From Methylorubrum extorquens (GTDB taxonomy: Bacteria > Pseudomonadota > Alphaproteobacteria > Rhizobiales > Beijerinckiaceae), in NCBI GenBank assembly GCA_900234795.1, contig LT962688.1, positions 1,800,001 through 1,832,000 on the forward strand: a stretch of 32,000 bases of DNA. Reading direction: 5' to 3'. Made by a program: the position numbers and the translations under genes. Below are positions 5,310-15,773 of this stretch, in pieces; the first letter of the stretch is position 1, and each line of letters begins with the position of its first letter. The notes under the pieces were generated by a model. The model saw only the letters and a list, made by a program, of their open reading frames with translations. It had not been told where the DNA came from and searched no databases.

Positions 5310-6169
5310 GCGTCATCCTCTCCGATCCGGAAGCGCTCCGGCTGGCGGCCGTCGGCGTCGGTGAAGCCGTAGGCGCGGGCGAGATCCCCGACATGGACCG
5401 TCCGCCCCGCCCGGTCCAGCACGGCGGGGTCGGCGGACAACGCCGCGAGCGCCCGGCCGGCATAGAGCGGGCTCTCGGTGGCGAGCGCCTCCTGGCCGAG
5501 ATCGCGCACCCGCTCGGTGGCGACGAAGCCCGGCGAGAGGCTGAGCGCGCAGACGCCGTGGGGGCTCAGTTCGGCGGCGCAGGCGAAGGCGAGCCGGTTC
5601 GTCGTCGCCTTGGCGAGGTCGTAGTAGAAATCGCCCAGAAACCCCTCCTCGGTGCCGAAGGAGACGAAGGCGATCAGGCCGGAGCGCGCGGCGACCATGG
5701 CCGGCGCCACGGCGCGGGCCAGCAGCAATCCCGGATAGGGCCCCGTCCCCAGAAACTGCGAGAACGGCTCGGCCGAGCGGCGCCAGAACGGCGTGCCCCA
5801 GGCGGCGCCGTCGGGGTAGCGTTCGCCGTCATAGCCCTCGTTGCCGCCCCACACGCTGGAGGCCGCGACATCGATCCGCCCGAACCGGCGCAGCGCCCAG
5901 TGCACGAGTTCGTCCACCGCCCGCTCGCTTGTGTGGTCGCACAGGTAATGGTGCCCCTCGCCGCCGGCCGCATCGACCTCGCGGGCGGTGTCCTCGATCG
6001 CTTCCGCGCGCGTCTCGGTGCGCCGCCCGGTCTCGGAGGAGCGCGCGGTGACGATCACCGTCGCCCCCGCCTCCCCCAACCCGCGGGCGAGCCCGCGCCC
6101 GACCCCGCGCGAGGCCCCGGCCACGAGGCAGACTTTTCCCCGCAGCGAGGGTGTGACGGAGGCGCTCAC
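5306..6169 (-). CDS. SDR-family oxidoreductase
   Basis: KVCLVAGASRGVGRGLARGLGEAGATVIVTARS is a Rossmann-type dinucleotide motif. The GTG start overlaps the upstream stop (GTGA), and the stop overlaps the next ATG (ATGA), so the genes look operonic. Confidence 0.8.
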   Translation of the reverse strand: MSASVTPSLRGKVCLVAGASRGVGRGLARGLGEAGATVIVTARSSETGRRTETRAEAIEDTAREVDAAGGEGHHYLCDHTSERAVDELVHWALRRFGRIDVAASSVWGGNEGYDGERYPDGAAWGTPFWRRSAEPFSQFLGTGPYPGLLLARAVAPAMVAARSGLIAFVSFGTEEGFLGDFYYDLAKATTNRLAFACAAELSPHGVCALSLSPGFVATERVRDLGQEALATESPLYAGRALAALSADPAVLDRAGRTVHVGDLARAYGFTDADGRQPERFRIGEDDA

Positions 6170-6930
6170 GCCTTGCCGGCGAGGAAGCGGGCGAGCCGCG
6201 CTTGCGTCTCGGGATCGCGCAGGCCCGCCTCGAAGGCCTGCGCCTCGGCCTCGATCGCCGCCTCGACCAGCGCCTGCTCGCCGCGCATCAGCGCGCGGGT
6301 CGCCTGCACCGCCCGGCGCGGCAGGGCGGCCAGCCGCGCGGCTTGCGCCAGCGCGTGCACCTCCAGCGCCTCGGAGGGCAGTTCGGCGTTGGCGAGCCCG
6401 AGCGCCACGGCGGCCGCGCCGTCGAACGGCTCGCCGAGCAGCAGCAGCGCCGAGGCGCGTGCGAGCCCGATCCGGCGCGGCAGCAGGTGGCTGGCGGCGG
6501 CCTCAGGCACCACGCCGAGTTCCACGAACGGCATGCGGAAGCGCGCCTGCGGCCCGACATAGACGAGGTCGCAATGCAGCGTCAGCGTCGTGCCGACGCC
6601 GATGGCGAGCCCGTCCACCGCCGCGACCATCGGGGTGCGGGTGCGGGCGAGCTGCCGGATGAAGCGCAGGGCCGGCATCTCGGAAAACGCGTCGCGCGGC
6701 GCCGTACCGGCGGCAAAGAAGTCGGCCAGATCGTTGCCGGCGGTGAAGGCGCCGGGCAGCCCGGCAAACACCACCGCCCCGATTTTTTGGGAGTTCGCGT
6801 CGGCGTCTTCCAGCGCCGCCGTGGCGGCGTCGTACATCGCCCCGGTCAGCGCGTTCTTCTTGGCCGGGCGGTTCCAGCGGATCAGGCGCACGCCGCCCGA
6901 AACATCCTCGATGGTGATGGCTTCGCTCAT
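6166..6930 (-). CDS. enoyl-CoA hydratase/isomerase (crotonase) family protein
   Basis: MSEAITIEDVSGGVRLIRWNRPAKKNALTGAMY...FTAGNDLADF...AAVDGLAIGVGTTL is the crotonase-fold pattern. I used the ATG at 6930; the ORF-track extension to 7110 is Arg/Gly-rich and implausible. Confidence 0.88.
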   Translation of the reverse strand: MSEAITIEDVSGGVRLIRWNRPAKKNALTGAMYDAATAALEDADANSQKIGAVVFAGLPGAFTAGNDLADFFAAGTAPRDAFSEMPALRFIRQLARTRTPMVAAVDGLAIGVGTTLTLHCDLVYVGPQARFRMPFVELGVVPEAAASHLLPRRIGLARASALLLLGEPFDGAAAVALGLANAELPSEALEVHALAQAARLAALPRRAVQATRALMRGEQALVEAAIEAEAQAFEAGLRDPETQARLARFLAGKA

Positions 6931-7360
6931 CCGCCCTCGCCCCACGCGCCGACCCCGAGCGCCGTCGCCGCCCTGACGGCATCGGCCCCTCGCCTCACCC
7001 TTCTTCCCGCGGCGACGCTTTGTCGAGGGGCCATCGGCGCGGTTCGGGCGCGCGCCCGCAAGCGGGTTCACGGCCCCGCGCCCCCTCCCCGTCCGGCCGG
7101 GGCCGCGCAACCCAGCCGCGCGGCGCCGACCCGCGCGGCATCACCGGCGGCGCCCGGGTTCGCGGGCCGGCGCCCCGGACGGAGGCGGCGGCAACGGGCG
7201 GCCCGAGCCGCCCTGCGCGAGGCCGGCCGGGTCGATCCGCCCGCAGGGCCCGAACCCAAGCCCCGTCGGCCGGCCGCGCCGGCCCCGACGCCTCGGCTTG
7301 CGGGGCGGTCCCGGTGTCGCACCCGCGAAACTTGGCGGTCCGCGTCTCGGATGACGGGCT

Positions 7361-7804
7361 ATGTGGTCACTCTACGCTCTCACGGTTCTCGCCGGTCTCG
7401 CCAACGCGATCCAGCCGGGACAGAACGCGACTCTGTCGAAGTCGCTCGGCCTGCCGGTGACGGCGGCCCTCCTGACCCTGCTGGTCAGCACCGCCGCCCT
7501 GCTCGTGGGCGGCCTCGCCCTGGGCAAACTCGAACTCCCCACCGGCCAACAGCTCGGGCAGGTGCCCTGGTGGGCGTGGCTCGGCGGCTTTTTGAGTATT
7601 CTGCTGATCCTGGCCCAGCTCTACGCCTCCCCCGCCATCGGCGCGGCGACGTTTTTGGGCATCATCGTCACCGTGGGCGTGCTCGCCTCGCTCGTGCTCG
7701 ACCACTTCGGCTGGATCGGATTTCAGGTGCACCCGGCCAGCGTTTGGCGGGTTGCCGGGGCGGTGTTGATGGTGATTGGGGTGGGGCTGGTGGCGGTGTT
7801 TTGA
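7361..7804 (+). CDS. DMT-superfamily small membrane protein (DUF606/YdcZ-like)
   Basis: 147-aa protein made almost entirely of hydrophobic helices (LYALTVLAGLANAIQPGQNATLSKSLG...VLMVIGVGLVAVF). The pattern matches DUF606 as I recall it. The stop at 7802-7804 coincides with the GC drop. Confidence 0.8.
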   Translation: MWSLYALTVLAGLANAIQPGQNATLSKSLGLPVTAALLTLLVSTAALLVGGLALGKLELPTGQQLGQVPWWAWLGGFLSILLILAQLYASPAIGAATFLGIIVTVGVLASLVLDHFGWIGFQVHPASVWRVAGAVLMVIGVGLVAVF

Positions 7805-7972
7805 TGGATAAGCATACGATCAATTGAATTATTCAGAAAATCATGCCCAGTCTGGACTAATCAGCGGGACAACTATTGTTCGAAAATCGTAGATACTGAA
7901 AAATTAATCTATATTCGTAAGAGCGCGGTGTCCCGCCCTAGGTGCGGTATCGGGTGCAAAATGTTTCTGAAA

Positions 7973-8000
7973 TTGCCTTGTCGGAAGGTTTGTTTATGCT
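7973..8000 (+). promoter_or_regulatory. possible sigma70-like promoter for the helicase gene
   Basis: TTGCCT (7973-7978), a 16-nt spacer, then TATGCT (7995-8000), about 35 nt upstream of the first candidate start. This is a motif match by eye only. Confidence 0.25.
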
Positions 8001-8034
8001 AGGTTGCGCCGAACCCTGGGCGTGATATTAGCCG

Positions 8035-9579
8035 TTGGAGCGAGAATTGAGATCGGGGTTGCCAGAAAATCACGGACTGCCAGAAGTAATACTAGACAGT
8101 AATTTAATACATAGAGATGAATTAGGCGAAATTCAGCTAACTGATATTCAGTTCGAAGCTTTGGAAGCAGGTGTTGCACGAGGGAATAACATCCTTGCCG
8201 TAGCGCCGACATCGAGCGGAAAAACTGACGTCGGTTTGTATGCTGCCGGTGCTTGGCTTGTAAGTGGGCTCGACGATGGAGCGAAAGTAGTTTTTCTTAC
8301 ATCCCATCGGGCGTTGGCTCGACAAAAATTCTATGAATTGATAGAAAATTTTGCTCCATTATTGATGCTGGGCTCTGACGAACTTGTTCTTGCGACTGGG
8401 GATGATGTACTTGATTCAAATGGTGATCCGGTACCTGATGCTCTTGCAGTACCTGTTATCGTTGCTACCTATGAAAAGTACCTCAATATGCTTTCAGGTG
8501 CCGGCTTCGAGGCCGGTAGATCTAAGGTTTGCTGCATTTGTGATGAAATTCAGCTAATCGGAGATCAAAACAGAGGGACTTCGGCTGAGATATTGCTTAC
8601 TCTGTTGAAGGGTAGAGTTGGGCAAATTGTCGGTCTGTCAGCCGTGCTTGAAAGCGGTTACGCAGGACTATTGTCAAGCTGGTTGGGTACGAATCTTATA
8701 AGAACTGTAGACCGAGAAATACCATTGAAATATGAGCTAAGAACAGCTCGCGCAACGATGATTACAGACACATCAAGCCAAAAGCAGCCAGAAATACTGA
8801 AGCCAAGATCAATTAATACGATCGACACACTGCGAGATATTCTAACTGATGGGTCAGATAGTGAGCCCATAGCTGTATTTTGCATGACAAAAAAACAAGT
8901 ATTCGATTTGGCTGAAGATTGGTCTGCCGAGGCTGCTAGGCTGGGAGCTCGTGTTGATGAAACATTGCCGCTCTTCAGCGAACTCACTTCCTCAGCCGAA
9001 GAGCTTGTTCGATATCTTCCTCATCGGTTTGCCTACCATACTGCAGATCTGAATGAAGATGAAAGAGTTGCGGTTGAAACAAAGCTGGACGACAATAACT
9101 TAAGAGTAGTTTTTGCTACGACCACCCTTGCATCTGGTCTAAACTACTCATTTAAGACCGTGATAATTCATAGTTGGATGCGGTACAATCAATTAGATAA
9201 GATATGGGCTCCTATCCCTTCTGCAGAATTCCATAATATGGCAGGCCGCGCGGGACGTCTTTCAAGGGTAGATAAAGCGGGAAGAGTAATATATTTCGCT
9301 GGCGACTCCAAAGAGCTTCGAGCGGCGCCGCGATATCTTTCATGGTGGGAATTGGAAGTACCACCACCGCGGATCCAACCAACCTCATTTTCGCAGCTCG
9401 GACTGCAATTGCTGGCCTCTGGCGTTGCGACGTCAGAGGTCACTTTGTTTGAATTTCTGCAGAGTACGTTTAGCGCGCAGAGAGAAATGGAACGCAATGC
9501 CCAGCAGCCTGAACTTTGGGGTGACGCTATCAGGCAGGCCATTTCTGATCTAAAAAAGTGGAGGTTTATTTCTCAATGA
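8035..9579 (+). CDS. SF2 helicase core, Hel308/Ski2-like (RecA1, RecA2 and N-terminal part of a winged-helix domain)
   Basis: All SF2 motifs occur in order: LTDIQFEAL (Q-like), APTSSGKT (8203-8226), VVFLTSHRALARQKF, ATGDD, VIVATYEKY, CDEIQLIGDQNRG (D at 8542), GLSAVL, IAVFCMTKK, AYHTADL, VVFATTTLASGLN and EFHNMAGRAGR (9238-9258). The start is non-ATG. TTG 8035 is the longest option. TTG 8047 has a GGAG Shine-Dalgarno at 8037-8040. Confidence 0.9.
   Translation: MERELRSGLPENHGLPEVILDSNLIHRDELGEIQLTDIQFEALEAGVARGNNILAVAPTSSGKTDVGLYAAGAWLVSGLDDGAKVVFLTSHRALARQKFYELIENFAPLLMLGSDELVLATGDDVLDSNGDPVPDALAVPVIVATYEKYLNMLSGAGFEAGRSKVCCICDEIQLIGDQNRGTSAEILLTLLKGRVGQIVGLSAVLESGYAGLLSSWLGTNLIRTVDREIPLKYELRTARATMITDTSSQKQPEILKPRSINTIDTLRDILTDGSDSEPIAVFCMTKKQVFDLAEDWSAEAARLGARVDETLPLFSELTSSAEELVRYLPHRFAYHTADLNEDERVAVETKLDDNNLRVVFATTTLASGLNYSFKTVIIHSWMRYNQLDKIWAPIPSAEFHNMAGRAGRLSRVDKAGRVIYFAGDSKELRAAPRYLSWWELEVPPPRIQPTSFSQLGLQLLASGVATSEVTLFEFLQSTFSAQREMERNAQQPELWGDAIRQAISDLKKWRFISQ
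9560..9564 (+). promoter_or_regulatory. Shine-Dalgarno (GGAGG) for the downstream nuclease-tail gene
   Basis: GGAGG lies 11 nt upstream of ATG 9576, which overlaps the ORF1 stop as ATGA. Confidence 0.5.
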
Positions 9580-10940
9580 TGGTTACTCCTGGCGGTAGAG
9601 CAGTGGCCCGCTCTGGATTGCTGCCGATAAGTGCCGACGAACTTCTAGGGTATATATCAGATAACTCTGTAAGATTTATCGACCTTATCCAAAATTGCTC
9701 TGAAAATGAAGGTATAGAATGCGAAGACTTTTGCTTTTTAATGATACATGCGGCTTACAGTTGCTCTGAATTTGGCGGTCAAGCCGTTGGCGGTCGCCGC
9801 TTCTTGCCATACCAATTGCTTAAGCCGCCTCTTAGAGGAGCGCAGCAGAGACTAGCCCCGATAATGTTCAAGTCTGGGCAATATGATACAATTAATGCCA
9901 CAATCCTGGCCATGCGATGGATTTCTGGAGATCCCATACGGGATATCGAGCGAGTATTTTCAGTAAGAAGTGGCGTATTGAACAATATGTTCAGTGATGC
10001 AGCAAATATTTTGCGTGGAATATCAGACATATTGTACGCTGTAACTGGTCGTCAGGGCGAATCTATGCTCCCAGCGGCGACGCCGCTTTCGAAAAGGGAG
10101 GAGCTCATATACATTCTGAGGGCAATTCGTCAAGTCTCAGCTAGATTGGATGTGGGTCTTCACGAGGACTCAATCTGGCTGACGACTGTGCATTACCCTT
10201 TATCAAACACGTCGAGAAGTATTCCTCCTATTTTGAGCCGCAAACACATCGTTTCTTTGAGGGGCGCCGGTTTTGTTTCGCCCGACAGTATTTTGGATCC
10301 AGGACGGTTTTCTAGTTTGATGGCCGCATTGGGTTCGGATCCCGCTTCAGCACGTCTACTCGCACAGAGCCTTCAAGATGGAGTTCGTTCTTGGCGCACT
10401 GTCGAGAGACAGCGTTTGATGGATAGTCAGGCTCGTAGACTTCCGGAATGTAAGTCGCTAATATTAAAGTTTTATAGGTCGACCGGTGTAGAATTCGAGA
10501 CGAATTTGGAATTGGCTCTAGAATGTGTTGGGATAAAAATTTTAGAAAAGGACCAGGCTGGAAAGACATCATTCCCTGATTTTGTGACAGAGTCAATTGC
10601 GAGTAGATCAACTGCAATCGAGTGCAAATCGAAGACCGTTGGAGACTCGGTAAATTTCAATGATGCAACTGACGTAATCCGCAAGGCAAATGTTAATGGC
10701 CTAAGTCAATCATTCAAAATCACTGTTTGCCAGCCGTATATAAGCCCAGATGTGCCTCGAAAGCTCACCAACTGCACTGAGCTTTGTGTGGTGAATGCGG
10801 AAGATCTTGCTGAGGCCCTAGTTCGAGTCAAGTTGGGAAAAATTTCTATGGAAACCTTCGCTGATTGGATACAGCGGCCCGGTCAAGCGTTGCGTGAAAT
10901 GTTGCCCAGTGATGGGTCTAGTGTTATTGGAATATCTTGA
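9576..10940 (+). CDS. helicase C-terminal module (winged-helix remainder, ratchet-like helical domain, HhH-like segment) fused to a PD-(D/E)xK nuclease domain
   Basis: VTPGGRAVARSGLLPISADEL resembles the Hel308 'T.lG..vS.lyidP' element. TINATILAMRWISGDPIRDIERVFSVRSGVLNNMFSDAANILRGISDIL is ratchet-like, and IVSLRGAGFVSPDSILDP is HhH-like. The C-terminus reads VEFETNLELALE...FPDF (D at 10578)...AIECK (E at 10620, K at 10626). The ORF track starts at GTG 9558. I prefer ATG 9576 for independent initiation. Confidence 0.85.
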   Translation: MMVTPGGRAVARSGLLPISADELLGYISDNSVRFIDLIQNCSENEGIECEDFCFLMIHAAYSCSEFGGQAVGGRRFLPYQLLKPPLRGAQQRLAPIMFKSGQYDTINATILAMRWISGDPIRDIERVFSVRSGVLNNMFSDAANILRGISDILYAVTGRQGESMLPAATPLSKREELIYILRAIRQVSARLDVGLHEDSIWLTTVHYPLSNTSRSIPPILSRKHIVSLRGAGFVSPDSILDPGRFSSLMAALGSDPASARLLAQSLQDGVRSWRTVERQRLMDSQARRLPECKSLILKFYRSTGVEFETNLELALECVGIKILEKDQAGKTSFPDFVTESIASRSTAIECKSKTVGDSVNFNDATDVIRKANVNGLSQSFKITVCQPYISPDVPRKLTNCTELCVVNAEDLAEALVRVKLGKISMETFADWIQRPGQALREMLPSDGSSVIGIS

Positions 10941-11004
10941 TTATTTTATCTTACTAAACAATTCAATATAAGCGAGTTTGATTATATTTGAAGCTATCTG
11001 ACTT

Positions 11005-11030
11005 CCGCAATATTGTTTATAATGTTGCGG
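11005..11030 (+). terminator. hairpin downstream of the islet operon (possible terminator)
   Basis: CCGCAATATT/AATGTTGCGG forms a 10-bp stem (one G-U pair) with loop GTTTAT, about 65 nt after the stop at 10940. There is no clear U-tract. Confidence 0.3.
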
Positions 11031-11711
11031 TGATGCTATTGCTATGATTCTATACTTCCTACTTTTCAATGCGGCGTTCGCGGGCAAATCAATTGACATT
11101 TTAGGCTTTTGGTCCTACATTCACGCCACTCGCCTCCCGGTCCAACCGGGGGAGCTTTTCCGGTGACCGGCCGGCGAGGCTCGTTGGGAGGTGGGGCGGT
11201 TCCCGCGTCGGTGGCCCGGTCGCCATCGCCTCGGGCGCTGTGCGCGACACAACGCCAACGCGGGATGGGGCCATAGGCCGGTCTCGGGTCGGCGCCCAGG
11301 ACCAACCGGAGCCGGGCCCAATACGAGGTCCGGTGCGGACGAGTCCGCCCATAGCCGTCTGCCGAGGTTCCCTCTCCCCTCGCGGGGAGGCGGGCCGAGG
11401 GTCCCACAGCGCCTAGATCCGGGGTCGATGCCGGTGGAGAGACCGTGACGCCAAAACGGAGGGACGGCTTCCCGTGATAAGGAAGCGGCCCCTCCGCGGG
11501 ACGCCGGGAAACCGGCAAAGTCTCACATACCCATCCGGAGGTTTCGCGGCGTCCCGCGTCCCCCTCGGGGTTTGTGTCCGATGCGTACCCAGCCGGCCGA
11601 TCGGCCAGCCGTCCTCCGGGCCCGGATCTCAGGGCCGCGGGGGGAAACGTGTTTTTGCAAGAATGCGGTTCGACCGGTCGGGGCGACGAGCGCGGTTCCA
11701 GCCCTCCGTCT

Positions 11712-11812
11712 CATCCTGAGGTGCGGCGCGAAGCGGCGCCTCGAAGGATCTTCCCGATCCCGCGCGATCCCCGGAGCCCCCTTCGCGGGCGCTTGCGCGC
11801 CACCTCAGGATG
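11712..11812. repeat. REP-like palindromic intergenic element
   Basis: Perfect 12-bp inverted repeat CATCCTGAGGTG (11712-11723) / CACCTCAGGATG (11801-11812), 77 nt apart. The left arm region CATCCTGAGGTGCGGCGCGAAGCGGCGCCTCGAAGGAT is itself hairpin-forming. It resembles the abundant Rhizobiales intergenic palindromes as I recall them. Confidence 0.5.
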
Positions 11813-11844
11813 CGGGCGTGGCGGGGCGGATGTGCGCGGCGCCG

Positions 11845-11945
11845 AGAGCCGTATCCGACCTGATGGCATCAGGCCGGCGTCTCTCGGTCCTTGTTGTGAC
11901 GCGCATTCTTTCGACGAACCGGTCACCACTTCGTCGGAATGCGCT
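11845..11945. repeat. 101-nt structured intergenic repeat, copy A
   Basis: 91 of 101 positions are identical, with no gaps, to 15108-15208 (hand alignment). It contains the hairpins CCTGAT-GGC-ATCAGG and CGACGAA-N11-TTCGTCG. Confidence 0.85.
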
Positions 11946-11994
11946 CGAGAGCATCATCCCGAAAGGTGGTGACCGGCTTTCGGAAAAAGATGAT

Positions 11995-12051
11995 GCAATA
12001 ACAAAAGGCTAGAGCATCGTGCTGGATCCGATATCCGGCACGATGCTCTAG
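11995..12051 (-). terminator. rho-independent terminator of kpsF
   Basis: Perfect 14-bp stem CTAGAGCATCGTGC/GCACGATGCTCTAG (12009-12022/12038-12051), extendable by about 4 more pairs. On the minus strand it is followed by CCTTTTGTTATT. The kpsF stop codon (12048-12050) lies inside the stem. Confidence 0.8.
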
Positions 12052-13070
12052 GCCACGCCGGTGCGCAGCAGGTCGTGGTAGTGCACGAGGCCGACGGGGC
12101 GGCCCTGGTCCACCACCACGAGCGCGGTGATCTTCATCGCCTCCTGGATCTGCAGCGCCTTGGCGAGCAGGGTCTCGGGCGTGATCGTGCGGGGGTTGGC
12201 GGTCATCACCGCCTCGACCGGCAGGCGGTCCAGCCCCTCGCGGGAGAAGACGGCGCGGCGCACGTCGCCGTCGGTGAGGATGCCGGCGAGCGCGCCCTTT
12301 CCATCGACCACGAGGACCGAGCCGAAACCCTTGGCGTCGATCTCGGCCACGGCGGCCCGCATCGCGGTGCCGATGGCCACCACGGGCAGATGCGCCCCGC
12401 CATGCATGACCTCGCGTACCTGCCGCAGCGAGGCGCCGAGCCGGCCACCGGGATGGAACACGGAGAAGTCGCGGGCCGAGAAGCCGCGGGCCTCCAGCAG
12501 CGCCACGGCGAGCGCGTCGCCGAGCGCGAGCTGCATCGCCGTCGAGGTGGTGGGGGCGAGCCCGTTCGGGCAGGCCTCCTTAGCTTTCGGCAAAGCGAGG
12601 CAGGTATCGGCCTCGCGGCCGAGCGTCGAGGCGGCGTTCGAGGTGATCGCCACGAGGCCGACGCGGTAGCGCCGGGTGTAGCCGATGATGTCGGCCAGTT
12701 CCGTGGTCTCGCCCGACCAGGACAGCGCCAGCACCACGTCGTCGGGCTGGATCATGCCGAGATCGCCGTGGCTCGCCTCGGCCGGGTGGACGTAGAGCGC
12801 GGGCGTGCCGGTGGAGGCGAAGGTCGCCGCGATCTTGCGGGCGACGTGGCCGGACTTGCCCATGCCGGTGCAGATCACCCGGCCGCGCGCCGCGCCGATC
12901 CGCTCGACGGCCTGCGCGAACGGCTCGCCGAGGCCGTTGTCGATCGCGGCCATCAGGCAGGCCAGGCCCTCGCGCTCGGTCTCGATGGTGCGCAGGGCCG
13001 AGGCGATGGCGGGCGCCCGCGCCGCGCCGTCCGTCCGGTTCCGGTCCTCGATCCGCTGTGCCAGGGCCAT
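12048..13070 (-). CDS. kpsF: KpsF/GutQ-family arabinose-5-phosphate isomerase (SIS domain plus tandem CBS domains)
   Basis: RVICTGMGKSGHVARKIAATFASTGTPALYVHPAEASHGDLGMI is the SIS-domain signature. The C-terminal CBS pair includes VVDGKGALAGILTDGDVRR and VVDQGRPVGLVHYHDLLR. Confidence 0.93.
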   Translation of the reverse strand: MALAQRIEDRNRTDGAARAPAIASALRTIETEREGLACLMAAIDNGLGEPFAQAVERIGAARGRVICTGMGKSGHVARKIAATFASTGTPALYVHPAEASHGDLGMIQPDDVVLALSWSGETTELADIIGYTRRYRVGLVAITSNAASTLGREADTCLALPKAKEACPNGLAPTTSTAMQLALGDALAVALLEARGFSARDFSVFHPGGRLGASLRQVREVMHGGAHLPVVAIGTAMRAAVAEIDAKGFGSVLVVDGKGALAGILTDGDVRRAVFSREGLDRLPVEAVMTANPRTITPETLLAKALQIQEAMKITALVVVDQGRPVGLVHYHDLLRTGVA

Positions 13071-13245
13071 GAAGCTGTCGTTTCCGTCTCAAAGCCCGGC
13101 GCCGGGCCCTCGCGATTCCTTAACCGCCCTCTTCACCCGCGACTGTGGCCGCATGGGGGCTACGCAACGGCTGCCCACGGCGGGACAGGGCGAGCGGGCG
13201 CCCCGCAACGGCGCGTTAACCATGCCCGGTGTAGCCCCGTTAACC

Positions 13246-15107: not shown

Positions 15108-15208
15108 AGAGCCGTCTCCGACCTGATGGCATCAGGCCGGCGTCTCTCGGTCTTTGTTTCGACGCGCTTTCTTTCGCCGAACCGGCGTCCACTTCGTCGG
15201 AAAGCGCT
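15108..15208. repeat. 101-nt structured intergenic repeat, copy B
   Basis: Ungapped match (91/101) to 11845-11945. It fills almost the entire gap between the convergent stops at 15093 (+) and 15209 (-). Confidence 0.85.
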
Positions 15209-15773
15209 TTAGCGCGCCATCGAGAGCTGCGCGCCGGATTTCGAGAGCGCGCCCTCGAGTCCGCCGCCGGCCTGCCGCAGGCGCGCCGTGACGGTGCCGC
15301 CCGGCTGGTAGAGGTAGACCTCGCCATCGCGGAAATCCCAGGCCGAGACCTTGGCGAGATCCTTGTTGCCGCAACCCGCGGCCGAGGCCTTGTAGAGATC
15401 GAGCGAGGGCGTGCTCGACAGCGACACCTTGCAGCTTCCCGCGGCATCGGTGGCGTTCCACGAGCCCACCACCGAGGAGCGGCCGGTCGCGACCACCGGC
15501 GGCGGAGCGGGCGGGGGGCGGCGGCTCGATCGCCTGCGAGGGGGCCGCGGCGACGCTCGGGGGCGGCGGCTCGCCCGGCGCGGCGGAGGCGCCCGGCGGG
15601 GGCGCGAGCGGCTCGCTCGTCACCGTGCCGGCGGGCAGAGCGGGCGTGGCGGGTTCAAGCGCCGCCTGGGGGCGCGGACGCTCGCGGGGCCCCTCGAAGC
15701 GGTTGGAGGCGCAGGCGCCGACGCTCGCGGCCAGCGCGAGACAGGCGGCTTTCGACAGGAACCCACGCGTCAT
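15209..15773 (-). pseudogene. Omp19/Inh-family (protease-inhibitor-like) lipoprotein gene, apparently frameshifted
   Basis: The frame from ATG 15773 (GAGGGG Shine-Dalgarno) gives a lipoprotein signal, MTRGFLSKAACLALAASVGAC, plus a Pro-rich linker. The conserved C-terminal domain VVGSWNATDAAGSCKVSL...LAKVSAWDFRDGEVYLYQPGGTVTARL...GAQLSMAR is in a different frame (15496..15209). The length is 565 nt, which is 3n+1. The switch maps near the G6 tract at 15513-15518. Confidence 0.7.

Follow-up and report, generated by a model that had tools for sequence, protein, structure and literature searches.

A two-gene Hel308-family helicase-nuclease in a strain-variable, low-GC cassette of Methylorubrum extorquens: a candidate defence module

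Positions 1,800,001 to 1,832,000 of Methylorubrum extorquens contig LT962688.1 (the window, 32,000 nucleotides, whose own numbering is used below) include a 3.3-kb islet with a guanine-plus-cytosine (GC) content of 45-47%, compared to ~70% in the flanks, which is compositionally foreign. The islet carries two open reading frames (ORFs) on the forward strand, ORF1 and ORF2, which span 8035-9579 and 9558-10940 as maximal reading frames. Neither a tRNA nor an Rfam family nor a further convincing ORF was found in the islet besides this pair, in keeping with an original prediction, made from the letters of the window, which described a foreign islet with nothing else aboard and read the pair as a split Hel308/Ski2-like helicase with an appended PD-(D/E)xK nuclease. 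The features are listed in Table 1.

Table 1. Features of the islet and its flanks, in window coordinates (aa, amino acids; WH, winged helix; HhH, helix-hairpin-helix)
Feature	Position	Strand	Remarks
ORF1, helicase subunit	8047..9579	+	510 aa; RecA1, RecA2, and WH up to the first wing strand (...KKWRFISQ*)
RecA1 lobe	8122..8679	+	~aa 30-215 (numbering from 8035)
RecA2 lobe	8680..9339	+	~aa 216-435
WH domain, N-terminal part	9367..9576	+	up to wing strand 1 (WRFI)
ATGA stop/start overlap	9576..9579	+	ORF2 ATG 9576-9578, ORF1 TGA 9577-9579; at the turn of the WH beta-hairpin
ORF2, accessory-domain and predicted nuclease subunit	9576..10940	+	454 aa
WH wing strand 2 and first helices of the helical bundle	9576..9815	+	aa 1-80; wing strand MMVTPGGRAVARSGLLP, T.lG..vs element
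Hel308 domain 4 (ratchet)	9816..10157	+	aa 81-194, including a long helix at 134-156
Hel308 domain 5 (HhH)	10188..10391	+	aa 205-272, including IVSLRGAGFVSPDSILDP
Predicted PD-(D/E)xK (restriction-endonuclease-like) nuclease domain	10485..10895	+	aa 304-440
Low-GC variable cassette (islet)	7803..11121	.	bordered by ydcZ and by the conserved stretch that precedes kpsF; from GC and flank collinearity
Left flank, core gene ydcZ	7361..7804	+	DMT_YdcZ exporter
Right flank, core gene of the kpsF/gutQ type	12048..13070	-	SIS + CBS

Both frames exist as first called, and only their starts had to be refined. The maximal frame of ORF1 opens with TTG 8035 and encodes 514 residues, but TTG 8047 is the likely start, giving a protein of 510 residues with the N-terminus MRSGLPENHGLP, because the gene is called with 510 residues in the sister genomes, the homologues begin with MRSGLP or MKTGLP, and there is a GGAG 6 nt upstream. 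For ORF2, the likely start is ATG 9576, overlapping the ORF1 stop codon as ATGA.

ORF1 contains the complete set of superfamily 2 (SF2) helicase motifs (Q, I, Ia, Ib, II, III, IV, V, and VI), and all those quoted in the original prediction are present in the translation. The RecA1 lobe has the Q motif LTDIQFEAL, the Walker A motif APTSSGKT (K63 at 8221-8223), motif II DEIQ (8542-8553), and motif III SAV, and the RecA2 lobe has the motifs IV AYHTADL, V FATTTLASGLN, and VI HNMAGRAGR as well as a predicted beta-hairpin at residues 382-393. K63, D170/E171/Q173, and R405/R408 are invariant in the alignment of paired homologues. The Pfam search yields DEAD and Helicase_C above the cut-offs and a weak match to the winged-helix family HTH_61 (residues 451-512, profile positions 36-91 of 92), and the NCBIfam Hel308/Hjm equivalog profiles align with residues 31-512 over profile positions ~20-460 of 674-739, with E-values down to 4e-47. 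The best relatives in the PDB are Pyrococcus furiosus Hjm, Brr2, Archaeoglobus fulgidus Hel308, and Sulfolobus solfataricus Hel308, with residues 27-446 of Hjm (PDB ID 2zj2) aligning at an E-value of 1e-28. In the structure model, the WH part consists of helices at 449-508 followed by a strand at 512-513. ORF1 is a Hel308/Hjm-like core that stops inside the WH domain, of which it had been said to carry the beginning.

ORF2 does not match Pfam, PADLOC (both at an E-value of <= 0.1), or NCBIfam, and a profile of its family retrieves only noise from the PDB sequences. The relationship to Hel308 is visible only via the structure and via fused relatives. The AlphaFold2 model built with the family alignment has a predicted local distance difference test score (pLDDT) of 88.6 and a predicted template modelling score (pTM) of 0.85, and Foldseek aligns its N-terminal 250-310 residues, at a probability of 1.0, with the C-terminal domains of Hel308, of Hjm, and of the helicase domain of Pol theta, as would be expected from the earlier claim that ORF2 continues where ORF1 leaves the Hel308 fold. 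Some of the distant fused relatives have Pfam matches to HTH_61, Helicase_dom4_arc (PF21280; above the cut-off in the relative P0245), and HHH_5, as well as a sub-threshold match to Mrr_cat. When transferred via the family profile, PF21280 maps onto residues 81-194 of ORF2, HHH_5 onto 205-272, and Mrr_cat onto 304-413, in agreement with the ratchet-like, HhH-like, and nuclease segments that had been proposed.

The C-terminal region of ORF2 is predicted to be a PD-(D/E)xK nuclease with an invariant catalytic signature. The catalytic candidates are E308 (10497-10499), D335 (10578-10580), E349 (10620-10622), and K351 (10626-10628), with a conserved TVCQP motif downstream. Stand-alone homologues of ORF2 number 40, with lengths of 432-481 residues, and across 20 homologues of the family E308, P334-D335, E349-C350-K351-S352, K370, and T383-x-C385-x-P387 are invariant. 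The residues D335, E349, and K351 correspond to the proposed D341, E355, and K357 when counted from 9558 and to D849/E863/K865 in concatenated numbering, in which they are also invariant in the paired-homologue alignment. The secondary structure of this region in the model is H304-317, E322-325, E336-338, E346-352, H366-373, and E380-386 (H, helix; E, strand). Its Foldseek matches in the PDB are FokI (probability 0.93), NucS/EndoMS (0.55), and SfsA, and in the BFVD they are annotated as viral restriction endonuclease and VRR-NUC (probabilities of up to 1.0) and as RecU and Mrr; the E-values are weak in both databases. The Mrr_cat match in the fused relatives reaches 20.2 bits, with a cut-off of 21, and sub-threshold matches to Hjc are found there as well.

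We modelled the concatenated window sequence of ORF1 and ORF2, using an alignment of unpaired rows and natural fusions. The model has a pLDDT of 92 and a pTM of 0.90, and a beta-hairpin is formed across the junction from strand 512-513 of ORF1 and strand 516-517 of ORF2. It superposes on full-length Hel308 (PDB ID 2p6r:A) with a target-normalised TM score of 0.81 (root mean square deviation 4.3 Å, 774 columns, E-value 2.6e-29) and also on Hel308 2va8, Hjm, and the Pol-theta helicase domain; HamB, the helicase of the Hachiman defence system, is not among the best 50 structural matches. At the sequence level, a profile of 23 fused members aligns with residues 1-669 of the 702 residues of A. fulgidus Hel308 2p6r at an E-value of 2.7e-144, leaving ~195 C-terminal positions beyond this match for the nuclease, and with HamB at 6.5e-51 over the motor only. 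Across the two proteins, the five domains RecA1, RecA2, WH, ratchet (domain 4), and HhH (domain 5) follow in Hel308 order. The profile and structure searches support a Hel308 chassis, and the pair can be read, as it had been, as one helicase-nuclease machine. We are confident that the islet encodes a two-subunit helicase-nuclease of the Hel308 family. By architecture and by sequence, the pair belongs to this family as a divergent relative and is not a Hel308 orthologue, because the scores of ORF1 against the NCBIfam Hel308 profiles (96-161 bits) are far below the equivalog cut-offs (887-1216).

The same enzyme is made as a single chain of 900-980 residues in relatives. An exhaustive profile search of 1.84 billion proteins yields 146 representatives, among which the full-length single-chain relatives have 960-979 residues, and those of a more distant clade have 895-931. 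In 15 ORF1/ORF2 pairs located on the same contig, the break point is identical, with ...W[G/R/N]F[I/V]x at the end of the first protein and MxLxVTxxGRAVARSGLLP at the beginning of the second, and the fused relatives read through as WGFI-(turn)-xLxVTxLGRAVAxSGLLP with a turn of 2-6 residues. An [AG]TGA overlap (ATGA or GTGA) is found at the identical point of the WH hairpin in all 10 loci checked. The split of the helicase, one of the features pointed out in the original prediction, is therefore real and conserved, but it is not special to the member in the window. The [AG]TGA arrangement is classic for translational coupling, and the two genes are predicted to be translationally coupled. A crude neighbour-joining tree was built for the part equivalent to ORF2. 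Its distant clade is almost wholly fused, fused and split forms interleave in the middle clade, and the crown clade with the window protein is all split. The interleaving suggests that fission or fusion at the junction occurred more than once and at little cost, which is consistent with a cut in the turn of the hairpin.

The cassette begins immediately after the ydcZ stop codon. Sister genomes were retrieved via the identical YdcZ protein, and six of them have the same pair in the same place; a protein 99% identical to the window protein is annotated as Methylorubrum zatmanii. In two further sister genomes, one of which (L015, record FP103042.2, 6443-9384) we take to be M. extorquens DM4, the slot between ydcZ and kpsF (7803-11121 in the window) is filled by a different low-GC cassette with a single gene for a 786-residue AAA_23/AAA_13 ATPase, which shows partial similarity to LmuB, mad3, AriA, and PtuA. 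The flanks at 6001-7802 and 11122-13200 are collinear with L015 at 96%. Because this collinearity extends up to 7802 on the left and from 11122 on the right, the ydcZ-kpsF slot is a strain-variable hotspot of cassette swapping with at least two alternative cargos.

The family is rare, and its distribution is patchy. A pattern-seeded scan found loci in 2 of 185,579 species representatives. The GC content of the cassettes is ~46-53% in hosts of 60-70%, with the exception of a myxobacterial locus (61%) and of a copy disrupted by an insertion sequence (57%). We examined about 12 neighbourhoods and found no third gene conserved beside the pair in them. The pair or its fused form lies inside an integrase/Prim-Pol/resolvase element, beside an integrase, an HSDR_N_2 protein, and a PIN toxin-antitoxin pair, beside resolvases, beside a serine recombinase and a Lamassu system (LmuA/LmuB), beside the PADLOC candidates PDC-S73 and PDC-S06 and a DrmC-like gene, and beside a type II methyltransferase, transposase fragments, and BrnTA. 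A fused member of 962 residues is encoded on a conjugative MOBP plasmid of Cereibacter sphaeroides (CP031755.1; L012, 7480-16164), close to parAB, mobC, and a nickase gene. The neighbourhoods in Rhizobium leguminosarum and Myxococcus look metabolic.

Three of these loci show further details. On the Cereibacter plasmid, the gene for the fused member is followed by an IS256 and then by a pair of a DUF4433 (DarT-like) protein and an ADP-ribosylglycohydrolase, which has no PADLOC match. In Methylorubrum thiocyanatum (L001, 9024-11365), the helicase gene is truncated to 326 residues within an integrase/Prim-Pol element located beside rpsT-dnaA. At another locus (L011, 6188-10688), an in-frame fused copy has lost its first 82 codons, and with them Walker A, to an insertion sequence with an rve transposase.

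Hel308 translocates in the 3'-to-5' direction, with the single-stranded DNA threaded through a ring formed by domains 1, 2, and 4; the ratchet helix touches the bases, and the 3' tail exits past domain 5. In the window pair, ORF1 provides the ATP-driven RecA1/RecA2 motor and most of the WH domain, and ORF2 adds the second strand of the WH hairpin, the ratchet, the HhH domain, a helical linker, and the predicted PD-(D/E)xK nuclease; the two products would be expected to assemble 1:1 by completing the WH hairpin. Because of the Hel308 homology, the enzyme would be expected to load on 3' single-stranded tails, nicks, or forks. The motor may then unwind the DNA and either pass it to the nuclease or license the nuclease, which would be tethered behind domain 5 by the helices at ~256-301 and act on the DNA processed by the motor. 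As a result, DNA of invading phages or plasmids could be degraded, or the degradation could be indiscriminate and lead to abortive infection, as in Hachiman, for which damage-triggered indiscriminate DNA degradation was shown (PMC12278908).

Taken as a whole, we propose, with a probability of roughly 0.6, that the pair is a Hel308-family helicase-nuclease acting as a self-contained anti-phage or anti-plasmid module. The cassette is cargo that moves horizontally and occupies a chromosomal hotspot varying between strains, and the reading as a defence module follows from this. The suggestion of a candidate defence system is strengthened by this context, with its hotspot cargo and its defence-gene and recombinase neighbours, and a defence or anti-mobile-element role appears somewhat favoured on these grounds; the role itself continues to be read from the surroundings. 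The survey of neighbourhoods covers only about 12 loci and gives a mixed answer to the expectation that such pairs sit in defence islands.

Several observations weigh against this proposal. Recognised or candidate defence genes are found in only about 4 of the 12 neighbourhoods, and the surroundings are plainly metabolic at the loci L002 and L010 and in the present window. A tblastn search of 50,697 phage records yields no relative. Some copies are decaying, namely the truncated helicase of L001 and the L011 copy cut by an insertion sequence. We see no discriminator of self and non-self, neither a methyltransferase partner nor a reader domain. The nuclease fold is based on motifs, secondary structure, Foldseek matches with weak E-values, and sub-threshold Pfam matches, and defence is deduced from context alone.

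The closest architectural relatives are archaeal Hel308/Hjm (PDB IDs 2p6r, 2va8, and 2zj2) and the helicase domain of metazoan Pol theta/HELQ, with the same five domains in the same order, and by this homology a 3'-to-5' helicase activity on forks and 3' tails is expected. In contrast to Hel308, the family of the window pair is bacterial and mobile instead of being a core repair gene, it adds the predicted C-terminal PD-(D/E)xK nuclease of ~150-190 residues after a helical linker, the window pair is split into two genes within the WH hairpin, and its motifs II and III read DEIQ and SAV. The literature describes Hel308 as an archaeal and metazoan enzyme, and it is stated to be absent from bacteria (PMC12278908); the family presented here, with its predicted fused nuclease, is a rare exception that is both bacterial and mobile.

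We also compared the window pair with the defence system Hachiman, which consists of the nuclease HamA and the Ski2-like helicase HamB. Both are two-gene systems that combine an SF2 helicase of the Ski2/Hel308-like type with a PD-(D/E)xK nuclease, which is a predicted one in the window pair. Copies of either can be found in defence contexts, and the two may plausibly share the logic of a helicase that senses 3' ends or DNA damage and is coupled to DNA degradation (PMC12278908). However, the only PADLOC matches of ORF1 are partial and restricted to the motor core, with HamB as the best and PDC-M23B as the other profile; the HamB profile matches begin at about position 230-270 and cover core stretches only, the HamB structure (PDB ID 8vx9:B) matches over the motor only, and HamB in the PDB aligns with ORF1 over residues 325-425 only. 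The N-terminal helical domain with which HamB binds HamA (PMC12278908) is missing from ORF1, whose Q motif starts at about residue 35. ORF2 has no match to HamA/DUF1837 in PADLOC or Pfam (E-value <= 0.1), and HamA is absent from its best 50 Foldseek neighbours in the PDB. Moreover, the nuclease is covalently joined to helicase domains 4 and 5, whereas it is a free subunit in Hachiman, and the gene order is opposite. Membership in Hachiman is ruled out by the absent HamA partner, the missing HamB N-terminal domain, and the motor-only match.

The Sinorhizobium meliloti protein Hna is a single-protein helicase/nuclease with a DinG/XPD-like motor and a reduced Arch domain, and its role in defence has been shown (PMC13381803). 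Hna and the window pair are both alphaproteobacterial and both join an SF2 motor to a C-terminal PD-(D/E)xK nuclease (predicted in the pair), but the motor here is Ski2/Hel308-like, which rules out membership in Hna. No sequence relationship to Hna was detected; there is only a marginal typeIV_DinG match (E-value 1e-4) in a fused relative. Cas3, AddAB/RecBCD, and DdmD are functional analogues only, as translocases feeding an attached nuclease, and use other helicase families and other nuclease folds or arrangements; the matches are marginal for Cas3 (E-value 0.006 in NCBIfam) and for DdmD (Foldseek probability ~0.1).

The pair cannot be placed in a named system, as had been noted at the outset: PADLOC-DB 2.0.0 has no model for ORF2, and full-text literature searches revealed no named Hel308-nuclease defence system. 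A more far-reaching proposal, which we put forward tentatively and regard as the less probable outcome, is that the pair represents a defence family without a name so far, for which bacteria recruited a complete helicase of the Hel308 type as a mobile immune helicase-nuclease. Its members would be more closely related to Hel308 than HamB is and would toggle repeatedly between one and two genes at the [AG]TGA in the turn of the WH hairpin, the subunits reassembling by completion of the hairpin.

Among the other functions that could be considered, service to a mobile element comes first, albeit as an unlikely one. Here, the pair would contribute to the maintenance of its own element, to competition between elements by plasmid degradation, as DdmDE does, or to the recombination or processing of element DNA. 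The fused copy next to parAB, mobC, and the nickase gene on the conjugative MOBP plasmid would fit this function, as would the copies inside the integrase/Prim-Pol element and beside resolvases and transposases. However, no element genes are found near the pair in the window, L002, and L010, where it is isolated in the chromosome, and the alternative cargo of the hotspot is a defence-like ATPase. To a large extent, this function overlaps with defence, as an anti-plasmid function is itself a form of defence.

A modification-dependent, type IV-like restriction enzyme, in which translocation of the Hel308 type would be followed by cleavage of modified foreign DNA by an Mrr-like nuclease, is improbable. 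The sub-threshold Mrr_cat match in the fused relatives, the structural neighbours annotated as restriction endonuclease, FokI, and Mrr, and the lack of a conserved cognate methyltransferase beside the pair point in this direction, but every Mrr_cat score lies below the Pfam cut-off, no modification-reading domain (SRA, YTH, or a winged-helix reader) was detected beyond the Hel308 domains, and Hel308 enzymes work on single-stranded tails and forks instead of duplex sites.

We give slightly less credence still to a host enzyme of DNA repair or fork processing, that is, a bacterial counterpart of the archaeal Hel308/Hjm with a nuclease as in Hef or Hjm-Hjc and no immune role. The closest characterised relatives, Hel308, Hjm, and Pol theta/HELQ, are indeed repair helicases, and the Myxococcus pair adjoins a gene for a DnaE-type polymerase. 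The pair does not fit a core repair gene, because its distribution is extremely sparse and patchy, its GC content is foreign, its presence varies and the cassette is swapped between near-identical genomes, and copies are carried on plasmids and integrative elements. The same observations speak against the possibility, raised with the original prediction, that the homologues might be housekeeping repair genes in syntenic positions.

Finally, it is very improbable that the two frames are a single gene, either broken by a frameshift (a pseudogene or sequencing error) or read by programmed -1 frameshifting at A_AAA_AAG (9551-9557): fused relatives exist, and the ORF1 frame contains a perfect slippery heptamer 19 nt ahead of its stop codon, with ORF2 in the -1 frame, but the former version is ruled out by the [AG]TGA split at the same codon in 10 of 10 loci and throughout the crown clade, by the shared split point of the 15 protein pairs, and by the catalytic residues retained in both halves, and the latter by the absence of the heptamer from the homologous junctions and the loss of the conserved WRFI wing strand that slippage there would cause. 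The heptamer is probably a coincidence.

The borders of the slot have some features of their own. No tRNA or tmRNA that could serve as an integration site was found within the window. The palindromic 9-mer ATCAATTGA is located at both GC transitions of the islet (7819-7827 and 11088-11096). By chance, the scanned windows would be expected to contain about 0.5 such matches, and similar chance 9-mers are found in other loci; as the count is not significant, the 9-mer was dropped as evidence for a target-site duplication. At its left end, the alternative cassette of the L015 type carries a related GATATTGAATT, and TTGACATTTT is common to the right end of both cassettes. The positions of ATCAATTGA, GATATTGAATT, and TTGACATTTT suggest a recombination site.

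Directly to the right of the slot, a GC-rich region of ~540 nt at 11125-11660, possibly on the forward strand, has no called gene. It differs from L015 in only ~3 of 540 aligned positions, and the coding flanks are ~96% identical. It is preceded by a promoter-like site, TTGACA-17-TACATT (11093-11121), which is partly common to the right ends of both cassettes. The region matches no Rfam family, and its folding energy is ordinary (z = -0.66). The region may correspond to an unknown conserved RNA or to a regulatory element marking the insertion hotspot. Further to the right, a 114-nt direct repeat with 87% identity occurs in two intergenic regions (11845-11958 and 15108-15221) and overlaps with a sub-threshold Rfam match to the Brucella small RNA CI27 (11939-12083; 35.9 bits, with a gathering score of 59.8); the repeat probably represents an intergenic element dispersed in alphaproteobacteria. 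A 19-bp inverted repeat at 12009-12051, 95% complementary with a 5-nt loop, covers the end of kpsF including its stop codon, is kept in L015, and is likely a terminator hairpin.

If the pair is active, the immune repertoire of bacteria would gain a compact family of helicase-nucleases encoded by one or two genes, and the eukaryotic and archaeal Hel308/HELQ/Pol-theta repair lineage would be tied directly to bacterial immunity by end-to-end homology, compared to the motor-only similarity of HamB. With its natural fused and split versions, the cut in the turn of the hairpin, and the predicted translational coupling, the family offers a clean system for gene fission in multidomain motors. For the Methylorubrum extorquens group, the ydcZ-kpsF slot is a newly visible hotspot of cassette swapping that can be mined for further cargo.

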